DNA of 64,000 bases from Escherichia coli (GTDB lineage: Bacteria > Pseudomonadota > Gammaproteobacteria > Enterobacterales > Enterobacteriaceae): NCBI RefSeq assembly GCF_050920415.1, contig NZ_CP169309.1; one strand, given 5' to 3'. The stretch's first letter is position 1. Each line of letters begins with the position of its first letter. Below the pieces are notes generated by a model. That model saw only the letters and a program-made list of their open reading frames with translations, was not told the DNA's origin and did no database searches. The position numbers and the translations under genes were made by a program. This document shows, piece by piece, positions 2,822-45,046 of the stretch.

Positions 2822-3456
2822 TGTATCAGCCTGATTTTCCTCACGTACCTTTTCGTTTAGGACTGTACCCGGTAGTGGACAGCGTACAGTGGATCGAACG
2901 TCTGTTGGATGCAGGCGTGCGTACTCTCCAGCTGCGCATCAAAGATCGGCGCGATGAAGAGGTGGAAGCCGATGTCGTAGCAGCAATTGCGCTGGGCCGC
3001 CGCTATAACGCACGGCTGTTTATCAACGATTACTGGCAGCTGGCGATTAAGCATCAGGCGTATGGCGTCCATTTGGGGCAGGAAGATTTGCAATCTACCG
3101 ATCTCAATGCCATCCGCGCGGCAGGCCTGCGGCTGGGCGTTTCGACACATGATGATATGGAGATCGACGTCGCGTTGGCAGCACGTCCTTCTTATATCGC
3201 GCTAGGACATGTGTTCCCGACGCAAACCAAACAGATGCCTTCTGCACCGCAGGGGCTGGAACAGCTGGCACGGCATGTTGAGCGCCTGGCGGATTATCCC
3301 ACCGTGGCGATTGGCGGTATCAGTCTGCCGCGCGCGCCTGCGGTGATAGCAACGGGTGTCGGCAGTATCGCCGTTGTCAGCGCCATTACTCAAGCCGCAG
3401 ACTGGCGTTTGGCAACAGCACAGTTGCTGGAAATTGCAGGAGTTGGCGATGAATGA
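2821..3456 (+). CDS. thiE: Thiamine-phosphate synthase ThiE, 211 aa
   Basis: ORF track 2818..3456; start moved to ATG 2821, which overlaps the thiC stop (TGATG) and gives the canonical MYQPDFP N-terminus. Confidence 0.9.
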
Positions 3457-38464: not shown

Positions 38465-38578
38465 GAAACGGAGCGGCACCTCTTTTAACCCTTGAAGTCA
38501 CTGCCCGTTTCGAGAGTTTCTCAACTCGAATAACTAAAGCCAACGTGAACTTTTGCGGATCTCCAGGATCCGCTTTTT
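38465..38578 (+). ncRNA. oxyS: OxyS small regulatory RNA
   Basis: Sequence GAAACGGAGCGGCACCTCTTTTAACCCTTGAAGTCACTGCCCGTTTCGAGAGTTTCTCAACTCGAATAACTAAAGCCAACGTGAACTTTTGCGGATCTCCAGGATCCGCTTTTTTTT recognised, including the terminal hairpin and U-tract. Confidence 0.88.
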
Positions 38579-38620: not shown

Positions 38621-39904
38621 TTACTCAATCCGATCTTTGACAATAAAGAAGTAACACAGCGCCCCGGTGAACGTCACACAGGCCGCGATAACCAGCGCCA
38701 GATTAAACGAGTGCGTGGTATCCACTACCCAACCGGTTACGATCGGAGCAAAGGAAGCAAAAACAAAACTGCCAAAGTTTTGAATCCCGGCGATGGAAGC
38801 CACTTTTGTTTCTGACACCATCACCTGCACCAGTCCCCATGCAGATGTTCCCGCGAAATGCACGCAGAACAGCGCCATTGAGATAAACGCTACAGCCTGG
38901 GCTGGCGAGGAGGATTGCACGACCAGCAACGTGCCTAATGCCGACATCATCAAACCGCAAACAATAGCCGTTTTACGCGTCTTCGCCAGGTCGTAGCCTT
39001 TTTTCGCCAGCCGATCGACAACAATACCGTTAACCCACATCCCGACCGCCGCCGCGAGGAAAGGAATCGCCGCCACCCAACCGGTTTTCGCCAGACTGAA
39101 GCCTTGCTCGGCTTGTAAATAACCGGGTAACCACGCGATGTAGAGCCAACCGGTATAATTGACGCCAGAGAAACCTAAAATCATCCCCCAGGTTGTCCGA
39201 TGCTTAAACAGCGCCAGCCACTCGCTAAATTGTAATTGTGGACGCGGTTTAACCGGCGCGGAGAGATAGGTCCGTTCTTCGTCGGTCAGGACAAACTGCG
39301 CCCGGTTGCGATACCACGCGTACCAACAGATCCCAACCAGAATCCCCGCCACGCCGATGATGACGAACATTGCCCGCCAGCCCCATGCCAGCTGCATCAA
39401 TACAAGAGCAGGAGGCGCAATAGCCTGACCGATAACGGTAGATGAGTTAAAAATCCCCAGCGCCGTGCCGCGTTCTTTTTGCGCATACCAGTCGGTGATC
39501 GACTTTACTCCCGCAGGCATAAATGGCGCTTCGCCAATACCCAGACCGATACGCATTAAAATAAAGTGGCTAAAAGAATTAACCATTCCTGTTAATGCCT
39601 GCATTAATGACCAGAATATTAAGCCTGCGCCTAAAACTATTCGTGGGCCAAAGCGGTCTAGCAAAATACCGGAAGGGAGTTGTGAAAAACCATAAGACAG
39701 AGAAAATGCAGAAAGCAAAACGCCAAATTCTGTCGCCGATAATCCTAACTCGCCACGAATCGCTTCGCCTGCCACGCTCAATGACGAACGGTCGAGGAAA
39801 TTAACGATCCCCGCCATAAATAATAAAACCAGCGTTACTGTCTGAATACGACGAATCCGTTGCGGTTTATTACCCGCAACACTGGTTGACACATCAACGT
39901 CCAT
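38621..39904 (-). CDS. MFS transporter, anion:cation symporter (ACS) family; putative sugar-acid (hexonate/hexuronate-type) permease, 427 aa
   Basis: ORF track; 12-TM hydrophobicity pattern; N-terminal NFLDR motif and overall similarity to DgoT/ExuT/GudP-type permeases; not at this locus in K-12 as I recall it. Confidence 0.8.
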   Translation of the reverse strand: MDVDVSTSVAGNKPQRIRRIQTVTLVLLFMAGIVNFLDRSSLSVAGEAIRGELGLSATEFGVLLSAFSLSYGFSQLPSGILLDRFGPRIVLGAGLIFWSLMQALTGMVNSFSHFILMRIGLGIGEAPFMPAGVKSITDWYAQKERGTALGIFNSSTVIGQAIAPPALVLMQLAWGWRAMFVIIGVAGILVGICWYAWYRNRAQFVLTDEERTYLSAPVKPRPQLQFSEWLALFKHRTTWGMILGFSGVNYTGWLYIAWLPGYLQAEQGFSLAKTGWVAAIPFLAAAVGMWVNGIVVDRLAKKGYDLAKTRKTAIVCGLMMSALGTLLVVQSSSPAQAVAFISMALFCVHFAGTSAWGLVQVMVSETKVASIAGIQNFGSFVFASFAPIVTGWVVDTTHSFNLALVIAACVTFTGALCYFFIVKDRIE

Positions 39905-39970: not shown

Positions 39971-41185
39971 TTACCAGTTCCACAATGTGCCATCTTCCAG
40001 TCGTGCGACGGGGAGATACGCCGGGTCATACGGATATTTCGCCGCCAGTTTCTCATCGAAAGAAATACCCAGCCCCGGTTCATCGCCTGGGTGCATATAA
40101 CCTTCATCGAAGCGCCAGCTGTGCGGGAAGACTTCAAGCATTTGTTCGGAATAGCCCATGTACTCCTGAACGCCAAAGTTTGGCACCCAGAGGTCAAAAT
40201 GCAGCGCCGCCGCATGACAAACAGGCGATAAATCTGAAGGGCCATGCGAACCGGTACGTACCTGATAAAGCGATGCAAAATCGGCAATCCGTCGCATCCC
40301 GGTAATGCCGCCTGCATGGGTAATCGTCGTGCGAATATAGTCAATCAGCTGCTCTTCGATTAACTGCTTGCAGTCCCAGATACTGTTAAACACTTCACCG
40401 ACCGCAATCGGCGTCACAGTATGCTGGCGAATCAGACGAAAACATTCCTGGTTCTCGGCAGGCGTCGGATCTTCCATCCAGAACAGGCGGTAATCCTCAA
40501 TGCTCTTCCCAAAGCGCGCCGCTTCGATAGGAGTCAGGCGATGGTGCATGTCATGCAACAGATGTTCGTTAAAACCGAACTTATTACGCACCGCTTCAAA
40601 TAACTTCGGTGTAAAATCGAGATACTTTTCTGAAGACCACAACTGCTCTTCCGGCCACAGGCCTTTGGTTGCCGGTTCATACGCCAGTCCTTTGCCCTTC
40701 GCCAGGCCATAAGTGGTTTGCATACCCGGTACACCGCACTGCACACGAATCGCCTTAAAGCCCATCAGCTGGTGCTTTGCATAGTCTTCAAGGACTTCAT
40801 CAATCGTGCGCCCGGTGGTGTGGCAATAAACCATCACGCCTTCACGAGAAGCCCCACCAAGCAGTTGATACAATGGCATATTTGCCGCTTTGGCTTTGAT
40901 ATCCCACAACGCCATATCAATGGCAGAAATGGCCGACATCGTGACGGGGCCACGTCGCCAGTAAGCACCTTTATAAAAGAATTGCCAGATATCTTCGATA
41001 CGGCTGGCATCGCGGCCAATTAATTGTGGACAAAGATGATCTTTCAGATAAGAAGCGACCGACAATTCGCGACCATTTAATGTGGCATCTCCCAATCCAC
41101 AAAGTCCGCTTGCAGTGGTTATTTTAAGCGTAACGAAATTACGTCTTGGGCAAGTAACAAAAACATCTGCAGCAATAATTTTCAT
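39971..41185 (-). CDS. Enolase-superfamily dehydratase, D-mannonate dehydratase (ManD)/RspA subgroup, 404 aa
   Basis: ORF track 39971..41245; start moved to ATG at 41185-41183 ([13 protein letters not shown]), preceded by RBS CAGGAG; hallmark RspA/ManD blocks [54 protein letters not shown]. Confidence 0.85.
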
Positions 41186-41670
41186 TATTGCAATCTCCTG
41201 TGTTGTAAATAGATGCTTCAAACTTAATTTTACGCCTACTACCATACAAGAGAGAAAGAGCGATTATTCAACCGTGATCACATTAAAAATAAAAATTTCC
41301 GCCGAGGAGAAAAAACACCCTCAAAAACCACCTGAATAATTAACCATTATCGTTAAAACAACACGTTAAATAATCACATAACAAACTCCATTAATCATTA
41401 AATATGAGCGCAGCAATAGAAATGAATTATATTCAATTAATTAAAATATGTATTGATTGATGTATTGAAAATATGATTTTCATGGGGAGAGTGAAGGTAA
41501 AGAAGACGCAAGAATAAAAAGGAATATGACAAATAATAGTTCTGGTTGGGCGTTAAATTTAAGGTCACCAGAATGCTGACAAATTTCTGCCTGAGGCAGT
41601 CCGCCTACGTAGTGTCGCTACTTTATAGGCGTGGTAAGCTCCCCATTTTCAGGGGAGCAATATAAACCAA
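41186..41670 (-). promoter_or_regulatory. AT-rich upstream region of the accessory operon (putative promoter)
   Basis: About 485 nt ORF-free, locally very AT-rich (e.g. 41340-41560), between the argH stop and the dehydratase start; no promoter elements assigned. Confidence 0.4.
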
Positions 41671-43044
41671 TTACCCCAACCGCGCCTGCGCAAAAGCAAT
41701 CGCCTGCGCCACCTGCTGCGGGGAGACGCCGCCTTTTGCCGCACGCTTGTCGAGGCACGATTGCAGCGACAGAATCGGATAGACATCTTCGCCAATCACC
41801 TCGCTGAATTTCTGCAACTCACTGAGCGGCAGTTCTTCCAGCGGTTTGCCCTGACGAATGGCTTCCACCACCGCTTCACCAACAATATGGTGCGCCTCGC
41901 GGAACGGCACACCTTTCGCCACCAGGTAATCCGCCAGTTCAGTGGCGTTCGCATACCCCTGCTGCGCCGCTTCCTGGCAACGTGGGCGTTTCACCTGAAT
42001 CCCGTCCAGCACCAGCGCCGCCATATGCAGGCAGTCCAGCCAGGTATCGAGCGCATCGAACAGACCTTCTTTGTCTTCCTGCATATCTTTGTTATAGGCC
42101 AACGGCAGACCTTTCAGCGTCATCATCATGCCGGTCAACGCGCCCTGAACACGACCGCATTTACCGCGAATCAACTCCAGCGCATCCGGGTTTTTCTTCT
42201 GCGGCATTAATGATGAACCGGAAGTAACACGATCAGAAAGCTCCACAAAACCCGCTTCGCCGGTGTTAAAGAAAATCAGATCTTCGGCAAAACGCGACAA
42301 ATGCACCATACCGATAGCGGCGGCAGATAGCAGTTCCAGCACGTGGTCGCGGTCAGAAACGCTGTCGAGACTGTTACGGGTCGCCGAGGCAAAGCCCAGC
42401 CAGCCTGCTAACTGTTCACGGTCGATTTCATAGGCCGTTCCCGCCAGGGCGCCACAGCCTAGCGGGCTGACATCCAGACGCTTAAGCGCATCCTGCAAAC
42501 GGCTTTCATCACGCGCCAGCATCTCAACATAGGCCAGGCACCAGTGCGCAAACGTCACCGGCTGGGCGCGTTGCAGGTGAGTGTAACCAGGCATTACCGC
42601 GTCCTGATTATTCTGCGCGGTTTCCACCAGCGCCGATTGTAACTGTCGGTTAGCCGTCAGCAACTCGCTAACGGTATCCTTGCACCACAGTTTCAGGTCA
42701 GTCGCTACCTGATCATTACGGCTACGCCCGGTATGCAGTTTTTTGCCTAACTGGCCCACTTTGTCGATCAGTTTGCCTTCCACCCAGCTATGGATATCTT
42801 CGGCGTCGCTTTCAAGAATTTGTTGTGGCCTGGCGCGAACATCTTCCAGCAGCACATTGAGCGCCTCTTCCAGTTGCACCTGTTCTTCTGCGGTTAACAC
42901 GCCTACCGTTACCAGCGCTTTGGACCAGGCCACAGAGCCAACAATATCCTGCTCCGCCAGACGGTAATCAAAGCGCAGTGAGTCGTTGAATTGTTTAAAC
43001 CGTTGATCTGCTGCCTGGGTAAAACGCCCGCCCCAAAGTGCCAT
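41671..43044 (-). CDS. argH: Argininosuccinate lyase ArgH, 457 aa
   Basis: ORF track; recognisable sequence. Confidence 0.96.
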
Positions 43045-44893: not shown

Positions 44894-45046
44894 CGGGGCT
44901 ATTCACCTTCTTATGTCTGGTTGCCTGGTTAAACGTAAAACATTCACCTTACGGCTGGTGGGTTTTATTACGCTCAACGTTAGTGTATTTTTATTCACAA
45001 ATACTGCATGAATATTGATACTATCATGACCAGAGGTGTGTCAACA
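44894..45046. promoter_or_regulatory. Divergent argE / argCBH control region with ArgR operators (ARG boxes)
   Basis: Palindromic AT-rich ARG-box-like repeats TTATTCACAAATACTGCATGAATATTGATA at about 44985-45030 between divergent argC and argE. Confidence 0.65.

Follow-up and report, generated by a model that had tools for sequence, protein, structure and literature searches.

A putative rsp-type promoter with a candidate RspR operator upstream of a regulator-less manD–MFS islet in Escherichia coli

How can an accessory gene pair that carries no regulator of its own be controlled? This question is raised by a small islet, comprising manD and a gene for an MFS transporter, which lies between argH and oxyS in the 64-kb stretch of Escherichia coli DNA analysed here (the window), and in particular by the DNA in front of it. 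Positions 41186-41670 of the window, 485 bases in all, are exactly the intergenic spacer between two minus-strand genes, bounded by the start codon of manD (41185-41183, minus strand) on one side and the stop codon of argH (41673-41671, minus strand) on the other. A sequence-only reading had described this segment as the AT-rich, ORF-free upstream region of an island without a cognate regulator, had likened it to horizontally acquired promoter regions bound by H-NS, and had left its control to chromosomal factors, with ExuR, UxuR and GntR as the ones named. The searchable literature yielded nothing on the islet or its spacer, including expression, binding or ChIP data. We find that the spacer is a composite of the 3' flank of argH, an AT-rich middle and the manD promoter, and, with somewhat better than even confidence, we read the last of these as a promoter of inherited rsp type under the control of RspR.

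The gene order across the locus is sthA, oxyR, oxyS, MFS, manD, the spacer, argH-argB-argC (on the minus strand), argE and ppc. Upstream of the spacer and co-directional with manD is argH (41671-43044, minus strand), a 457-aa ORF that is annotated as argH in a near-identical complete genome. The first gene of the islet, manD (39971-41185, minus strand), codes for a paralogue of RspA and a member of the D-mannonate dehydratase family of the enolase superfamily; its product (Pfam MR_MLE) shares 91% amino acid identity with K-12 RspA and scores 726 bits with the NCBIfam ManD equivalog, which K-12 RspA matches as well. The second gene (38621-39904, minus strand; Pfam MFS_1) codes for a transporter of the D-galactonate/aldonate type in the anion:cation symporter subfamily, for which the best NCBIfam match, TIGR00893, falls under the cut-off; a relationship to YdfJ as a paralogue was considered and rejected at 21% identity. 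The other boundary of the islet is formed by oxyS (38465-38574, plus strand; Rfam OxyS, 139.5 bits). The islet of these two genes indeed contains no regulator gene.

Across 5426 complete E. coli genomes, the interval between argH and oxyS occurs in three states. In the empty state, exemplified by K-12, about 55 bp separate the argH stop codon from the oxyS terminator, and these include the canonical intrinsic terminator of argH. The small islet, with manD, the MFS gene and a spacer of 485-497 bp, is present in about 1714 of the genomes, and a large form in 146; the latter adds araD, a DeoR regulator, an ABC sugar transporter, an epimerase and an FGGY kinase, all situated between argH and the upstream region of manD. 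The window departs from K-12 immediately after the argH stop codon and again at the T-run of the oxyS terminator. The spacer itself is found in 1867 of the 5426 genomes, always as a single chromosomal copy, and the window carries the rarer of its two small-islet alleles (166 genomes match at 95% or above, and 1696 at 90-95%). The 134 bp adjoining argH (41537-41670), likewise single-copy, occur in 1721 genomes only, all of which have either the small islet or, in strain LP5-1, a derivative of it with an IS1-associated deletion; they were found in none of the genomes with the empty or large-island states. Thus, the sequence is linked to the islet and does not occur as the native 3' flank of argH in strains without the islet genes; K-12 has a different spacer of about 55 bp.

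The composition of the spacer sets it apart from everything around it. Its GC content is 34.4% as a whole, and 36.1% in the manD-proximal segment (41186-41282), 27.6% in the middle (41283-41536) and 46.3% in the argH flank (41537-41670), as against a window mean of 51.9% (sd 3.8-5.3%). When GC was computed over 150, 250 and 485 bp, the lowest value of the entire 64 kb lay in or overlapped the spacer at every scale, namely 22% at 41334-41483, 28% at 41287-41536 and 32% at 41110-41594. The AT-richness is limited to the spacer, the neighbouring genes manD, MFS and argH having GC contents of 50.1%, 51.2% and 56.2%. The ORF listing for the spacer holds only frames of 39 and 43 codons with TTG or GTG starts, neither of them credible as a gene, and no feature is annotated in it in the complete genomes listed. 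An AT-rich region devoid of credible ORFs (34% GC overall, 22-28% in the middle) and distinct in GC from its flanks is, therefore, what the locus contains: ordinary non-coding DNA that separates argH from an accessory pair of sugar-acid genes.

The manD-proximal segment is the part from which a specific mode of control can be proposed. Reading outward from manD on the minus strand, there is a Shine-Dalgarno sequence, AGGAG (41195-41199), 9 nt before the ATG; a predicted transcription start at a C (41215), 30 nt upstream of the ATG; a putative -10 hexamer, TAAGTT (41221-41226), 17 nt after a putative -35, TTGTAT (41244-41249); a variant of the RspR box, TCTC-TTGTATGGTAGTAG (41236-41253), which overlaps this -35; and a CRP-like half-site, TGTGATCAC (41274-41282), located 24 nt upstream of the 4-mer that begins the operator, at which CRP may bind. 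The Shine-Dalgarno sequence and the hexamers are read directly from the DNA, and the start site is predicted by homology. The operator contains GTATGGTA, and within it the 11-mer TTGTATGGTAG occurs exactly once in the window, at 41249-41239 on the manD strand with TCTC before it; the extended core C-TTGTATGGTAG(T) is matched exactly at 41250-41238. The whole promoter-proximal 100 bp, operator and promoter included, is invariant in the six alleles compared, among them that of the big-island form.

The -35 and -10 hexamers are both weak, and a consensus scan for sigma-70 promoters returned none on either strand of 40900-41900, TAAGTT falling under its threshold. No site matching the 22-mer CRP consensus with up to three mismatches is present in the window, and a manual count gives nine mismatches for the CRP-like site; we claim only a CRP half-site, by way of whose TGTGA cAMP-CRP may provide an input. 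A search of one genome per species recovered 80 Enterobacterales loci coding for proteins 90-94% identical to ManD, and those examined in detail are rsp-type loci adjoining ynfA. The core TTGTATGGTAG is present in 78 of the 80, with 88 matches in 1.0 Mb where about 0.5 would be expected by chance. These matches are preceded by ATAC in 73 cases and by an xTTC-like 4-mer in seven, and in 80 of the 88 a TGTGA stands 24-25 nt upstream of the box, the distance in the window being 24 nt.

Published experiments concern one such promoter, that of K-12 rspA, at which the GntR-family protein RspR (YdfH) leaves a 31-bp footprint centred on ATACnnGTAT, and whose transcript was mapped by primer extension to a C lying 30 bp before the ATG (Shimada et al., PMC8249747). 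The manD promoter has the same core, CTTGTATGGTAGTAG, overlapping the same TTGTAT -35; the same TGTGATCAC at the same 24 nt upstream of the 4-mer before the core; and a C within the same GCATC context at the same position, 30 nt before the ATG. The two differ in the left half-site, which is ATAC at rspA and TCTC at manD; in the -10, which is TAAGTT with a 17-nt spacer at manD and TAGATT with 18 nt at K-12 rspA, though the rspA promoter of a Citrobacter sp. has TAAGTT as at manD; in the 5' leader, that of manD being unrelated to that of rspA; and in the DNA farther upstream, which consists of about 250 bp of AT-rich sequence at manD and of the end of the ynfA gene at rspA. Because the alignment to rspA becomes ambiguous once past the operator in the downstream direction, the start site at manD is a prediction from position. 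Within these bounds, we consider 41186-41282 to represent, on the evidence of the aligned elements, a promoter homologous to those of the Enterobacterales rsp regulon.

The box in the window reads TCTCTTGTAT. It retains GTAT as its right half, together with the TT spacer, but in the left half only one of four bases matches, and it is not a perfect palindrome of the form ATACnnGTAT. This divergence has a counterpart among the rsp loci themselves. In our alignments, CTTGTATGGTAGT is invariant across the rspA, MFS, ydfI-type and manD promoters, and the preceding bases vary, with ATAC before the core in the rspA promoters and NTTC where, within those loci, the promoter is of the MFS or ydfI type. 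The TC that the window has in place of AC stands likewise before TTGTATGGTAGT in Enterobacter, Pluralibacter and Raoultella, where it precedes the MFS orthologues and, in Raoultella, also a ydfI-like gene; TC is therefore a recurrent natural form of the box. Two aligned MFS promoters that were checked also have TGTGA at the same 24-nt spacing, whereas in the ydfI-type promoter it lies nearer the box; outside the box, the MFS and ydfI-like promoters cannot be aligned with the manD promoter.

The genes downstream of this promoter point in the same direction, both being of the rsp gene set: ManD by its 91% identity to RspA, and the transporter by its orthologues, 87-89% identical, which are found inside the rsp loci of Raoultella, Cedecea, Enterobacter and Pluralibacter (88-89% for the Enterobacter and Pluralibacter genes) and are its closest relatives outside E. 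coli. In Raoultella the order is ynfA-MFS-rspA-rspB, and a Cedecea-type contig has ynfA-rspA-rspB-MFS-MFS followed by a GntR/FCD gene. The arrangement MFS-rspA-rspB of such rsp loci differs from the manD-MFS order of the islet. In one Raoultella contig the rsp locus also holds, a few genes further on, a GntR/FCD gene of the rspR type, whereas the rspR that would serve the E. coli islet resides at the distant rsp locus. From these likenesses of genes and operator, we read the islet as two genes split off from an rsp-type locus, with the operator retained.

The missing regulator is, then, probably the core-genome repressor RspR, the gene for which is present in 5417 of the 5426 complete E. coli genomes. 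In K-12, rspA expression is higher in an rspR mutant, from which it was concluded that RspR represses (PMC8249747). By analogy with rspA, we infer that RspR, a GntR/FCD protein, would bind the manD operator and block RNA polymerase, that a sugar-acid inducer would relieve this repression, and that cAMP-CRP may help activation; both the binding and the direction of regulation are thus carried over from the anatomy, homology and distribution of the site. The islet could do without a regulator because it would have kept the operator for one that nearly every E. coli possesses. With only one of four left-half bases retained, the affinity of RspR for the TCTC form may be reduced or even lost. RspR has been classed as a single-target transcription factor from a screen on K-12 DNA (PMC8249747); as that DNA lacks manD, the screen neither supports nor excludes manD as a target. 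The best candidate as regulator is RspR, perhaps with CRP. Control by chromosomal factors remains the most likely arrangement, as had been supposed, but not by the factors that had been named: searches with consensus patterns found no operator resembling those of ExuR/UxuR or GntR in the spacer, and what is found in its stead is the architecture of the rsp regulon with an operator of the RspR type.

A different role would fall to the spacer if its AT-richness were itself the control element, such that this is a xenogeneic promoter silenced by H-NS. The protein would polymerise over the AT-rich DNA, and the two islet genes would stay silent pending the action of a counter-silencer or of ExuR, UxuR or GntR. 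The AT-rich core (41283-41536), with 27.6% GC over 254 bp, has an AT content far above the average of the window; at 22-28% GC it includes the minimum of the 64 kb, about 5 sd below the mean, and the stretch is absent from K-12. No element could be assigned to these 254 bp, nor any positive function identified for them. In E. coli, H-NS usually occupies stretches that stay below 30% GC for more than 200 bp. Hence, by composition alone, 41283-41536 is a candidate binding stretch for H-NS or other nucleoid proteins, and H-NS binding over it is plausible; indeed, the binding of such proteins would be the only likely role of the AT-rich DNA.

Silencing of foreign DNA as the principal control is a doubtful explanation nevertheless. 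The high-affinity H-NS motif TCGATAAATT has only two matches in the spacer, each with two mismatches, which is not notable enrichment in a window that averages 0.56 per 485 bp and reaches four elsewhere; the operators for ExuR/UxuR and GntR that this explanation invokes are absent from the spacer; and a specific, conserved operator of the rsp type is present. Moreover, the label 'horizontally acquired' fits poorly with islet genes that show neither foreign composition nor other signs of recent arrival: their GC content is host-like (50-51%), and the three alleles of manD and MFS that were compared, which include that of the B2 strain Nissle 1917, show 97-98% DNA identity, as core genes do. A search for donors among 100,044 species-representative genomes gave a best match of 94% for ManD; for the MFS protein, no relative above 90% identity was found outside E. 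coli, and the spacer had no blastn match in the 80 Enterobacterales loci. We note separately that H-NS silencing is compatible with control by RspR, to which it could be added as an extra layer.

The history of the middle can be followed by comparing the small and large forms of the islet. From the manD start codon, the two are 90% identical over 41186-41389, and from 41390 to about 41535 the identity drops to 64%, at which they are still recognisably homologous (z 8-9), the homology ending at about 41535. As the genes manD and MFS are 97-98% identical in the same comparisons, the middle is fast-evolving or anciently diverged spacer DNA. Given the adjacent arg genes, control by ArgR was also considered: a palindrome, TGAAT-ATA-ATTCA, is present at 41423-41435, but its centre is 1 bp too short and it departs from the ARG-box consensus at three bases, a match that chance alone would give, and it was rejected; the same search recovered real ARG boxes at 44982 and 45003.

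At the far end of the spacer, the flank of argH is of another character. The 134 bp at 41537-41670 have significant RNA structure on both strands (z -4.3 for that of argH, z -3.6 for its complement). Both of the inverted repeats that had been pointed out here exist, the second of them a few bases from its quoted position, and neither is what it had been taken for. The first forms hairpin 1, GCUCCCC-UGAAAAU-GGGGAGC (41638-41658, minus strand), which starts 12 nt after the argH stop codon and folds with -15.1 kcal/mol (z -4.0) on a 7-bp stem with six G-C pairs; the underlying repeat, GCTCCCC-TGAAAAT-GGGGAGC, occurs nowhere else in the window, where the chance expectation is 0. It had been thought a possible terminator of argH, and, as in a Rho-independent terminator, the stem-loop is GC-rich. 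However, there is no U-tract on either strand: the hairpin continues into UUACCACG, and the sequence 3' of it is UUACCACGCC on the minus strand and AAUAUAAACC on the plus strand. Lacking the U-tract, it fails an intrinsic-terminator scan, which finds no terminator-like site on either strand of 41186-41670. The same scan recovers the K-12 argH terminator, a similar GC-rich stem-loop after the stop codon (-16.0 versus -15.1 kcal/mol).

The second repeat, CTGCC-TGA-GGCAG (41587-41599), had been put forward as an inverted repeat in its own right in a presumptive control region. It lies within a decayed REP element (41587-41608). The common allele has at this place the full 35-nt REP CTGCCTGATGCGGCGTAAACGCCTTATCCGCCTAC, reading GTAGGCGGATAAGGCGTTTACGCCGCATCAGGCAG, of which 13 internal bases are missing from the window allele; with two further substitutions, 22 nt are kept. 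The 35-mer is a repetitive element of the species, with at least 25 places per genome and a median of at least 40 in 5425 of the 5426 E. coli genomes. REP elements are found in the 3' flanks of E. coli genes, and that of the common allele likewise lies directly downstream of argH; in the window allele (about 163 genomes) the loss of 13 bp has left a 5-bp stem that mimics an independent inverted repeat. The element in the window would accordingly be classed, by comparison of the alleles, as a REP remnant and not as an intact REP member. Beside it, hairpin 2, CGCCUAU...GUAGGCG (41602-41631, minus strand), overlaps the tail of the REP with its 3' arm, and the RNA of 41580-41636 folds with -19.4 kcal/mol (z -3.7). 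A weak inverted repeat, TTCTGGT-N20-ACCAGAA (41540-41573; -7.4 kcal/mol, z -2.1), marks the inner end of the flank. Overall, 41537-41670 is an ordinary REP-containing 3' flank, which occupies the place of the canonical argH terminator of K-12. Its most likely role would be that of a 3'-end and mRNA-stability structure that marks or stabilises the 3' ends of argH transcripts, with termination in the strains bearing the islet predicted to be Rho-dependent or leaky.

These signs of decay invite the view that the spacer beyond a short promoter has no function, being a junction leftover of the rearrangements from which the islet arose that has drifted toward AT and been invaded by a REP, with manD maybe poorly expressed or itself decaying. 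Consistent with this, the middle is only 64% identical between the islet forms as against 97-98% for the flanking genes, the window allele has no more than a decayed REP, an IS1 has inserted at 41536/41537 with a deletion in strain LP5-1, no strong promoter or terminator consensus is found in the spacer, and the MFS gene has a premature stop in the closest complete genome, in which 10.5 kb show only 2 nt of difference to the window. Against it, six alleles show no change in the 100 bp nearest manD, the structure of the argH flank is significant (z -4.3), and both islet genes are intact not only in the window but also in most of the genomes listed, with Nissle 1917 among the carriers of the islet. 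We hold this view to be unlikely.

That the spacer conceals a gene, be it a small RNA such as a second copy of oxyS or a small protein, strikes us as most improbable: at the corresponding position the big-island allele does have a degraded copy of oxyS (81% over 91 nt; Rfam 35.5 bits, E 1.4e-5, below the gathering score), either strand of the 134-bp flank folds well and one short frame lengthens to 73 codons in the commoner allele, but the spacer of the window has no promoter-like site on either strand and only two Rfam matches, at chance level (cyano-S1, E 0.9; snR5, E 8), and the 73-codon frame runs through the REP, is broken in the window allele, yields a peptide that varies between alleles and is unannotated in the genomes listed. 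An oxyS remnant in the window was rejected on local and global alignments of the 134-bp flank and of the entire spacer to oxyS and to the second copy (z -0.6 to 0.5), and no match to OxyS (RF00035) was found in 41100-41750 at E values up to 10. Small proteins were set aside too, the frames of 39, 43 and 73 codons, whose lengths vary between alleles and one of which crosses the REP element, not being conserved as coding sequence.

The significance of these observations is modest: all the identifiable parts of the spacer are of known kinds, and no new kind of biology is called for. They do correct two misreadings to which such loci lend themselves, a decayed REP taken for a regulatory palindrome and a hairpin lacking a U-tract taken for a terminator. 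The mildly new point is that a 'single-target' regulator of K-12 probably has, on the strength of the shared operator, a second target that is strain-specific. We advance more tentatively, at somewhat less than even confidence, the fuller picture in which RspR acts on the manD-MFS islet in about one-third of complete E. coli genomes, so that an accessory islet joins a core repressor in a single regulon and an AT-rich silencer of the H-NS type lies upstream. The locus would then illustrate how an accessory gene pair without a regulator can be controlled, by keeping the operator of a core-genome repressor, and the classes of 'single-target' regulators derived from K-12 may not hold across the species.

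The large-island form of the argH–oxyS interval, which is carried by 146 of 5426 complete E. coli genomes, contains a degraded extra copy of oxyS, flanked by the FGGY-kinase gene on one side and the region upstream of manD on the other. In E. coli WP9-S17-ESBL-11 (locus L005) this copy lies on the plus strand at 2958-3080, which would correspond to about 41537-41670 in the window. Over 91 nt it shares 81% identity with the genuine oxyS, and its match to the Rfam OxyS model reaches 35.5 bits, under the gathering score of 75. Direct oxyS repeats therefore bracket manD and the MFS transporter gene in the large-island form, an arrangement that hints at a locus built through recombination involving oxyS. 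The window allele lacks the second copy and shows no trace of it.

The DNA identity of argH (41671-43044) is only about 95-96% among the window, K-12, Nissle 1917 and WP9. For the adjoining manD and MFS genes, the three sequences that carry the islet agree at 97-98%. This pattern suggests elevated recombination or allele mixing across argH, manD and the MFS gene. In E. coli LP5-1 (L002), a deletion has removed manD together with the 5' portion of the MFS gene, and the 134-bp argH flank remains; here, an IS1 element is inserted at the position equivalent to 41536/41537, exactly where the small-islet spacer ceases to be homologous to the large-islet one.

The sequence that follows the argH stop codon is different in each of the three states of the interval: empty, with the small islet and with the large one. 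The canonical intrinsic terminator of K-12 argH, with a 9-bp stem and a T-run, has been replaced by the islet (window 41660-41673 versus 2221-2275 in the K-12 locus). Since manD is co-directional, 485 bp downstream of argH and with no canonical terminator in between, transcription of argCBH could conceivably read through into manD.

Two further candidate features of the spacer were rejected. The palindrome TGAAT-ATA-ATTCA (41423-41435) looks like an ARG box whose centre is short by 1 bp; its three mismatches to the consensus do not place it above chance, and the same search recovered the genuine ARG boxes between argC and argE (44982-45020). A 73-codon frame in common-allele spacers (L007, L008 and L095; equivalent to about 41437-41650) has its ATG within hairpin 1, crosses the REP and extends into the AT-rich part. 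The frame lacks an annotation, is interrupted in the window allele and is altered by peptide-changing differences between alleles; it is very unlikely to be a gene.

The MFS gene is intact in the window. In MFDS1022581, the closest complete genome, with two nucleotide differences in 10.5 kb, codon 88 (39643) is TGA instead of CGA, and the gene is annotated as a pseudogene for this reason.

In K-12, rspA is the only reported RspR target (PMC8249747). In the rsp loci of Enterobacter, Pluralibacter and Raoultella, there is one NTTC-TTGTATGGTAGT box for the MFS orthologue and a separate one for a ydfI-like gene (L010, 4481; L023, 4475; L092, 6931; L093, 12189). Judging from these boxes, the RspR regulon in these genera probably has several promoters.
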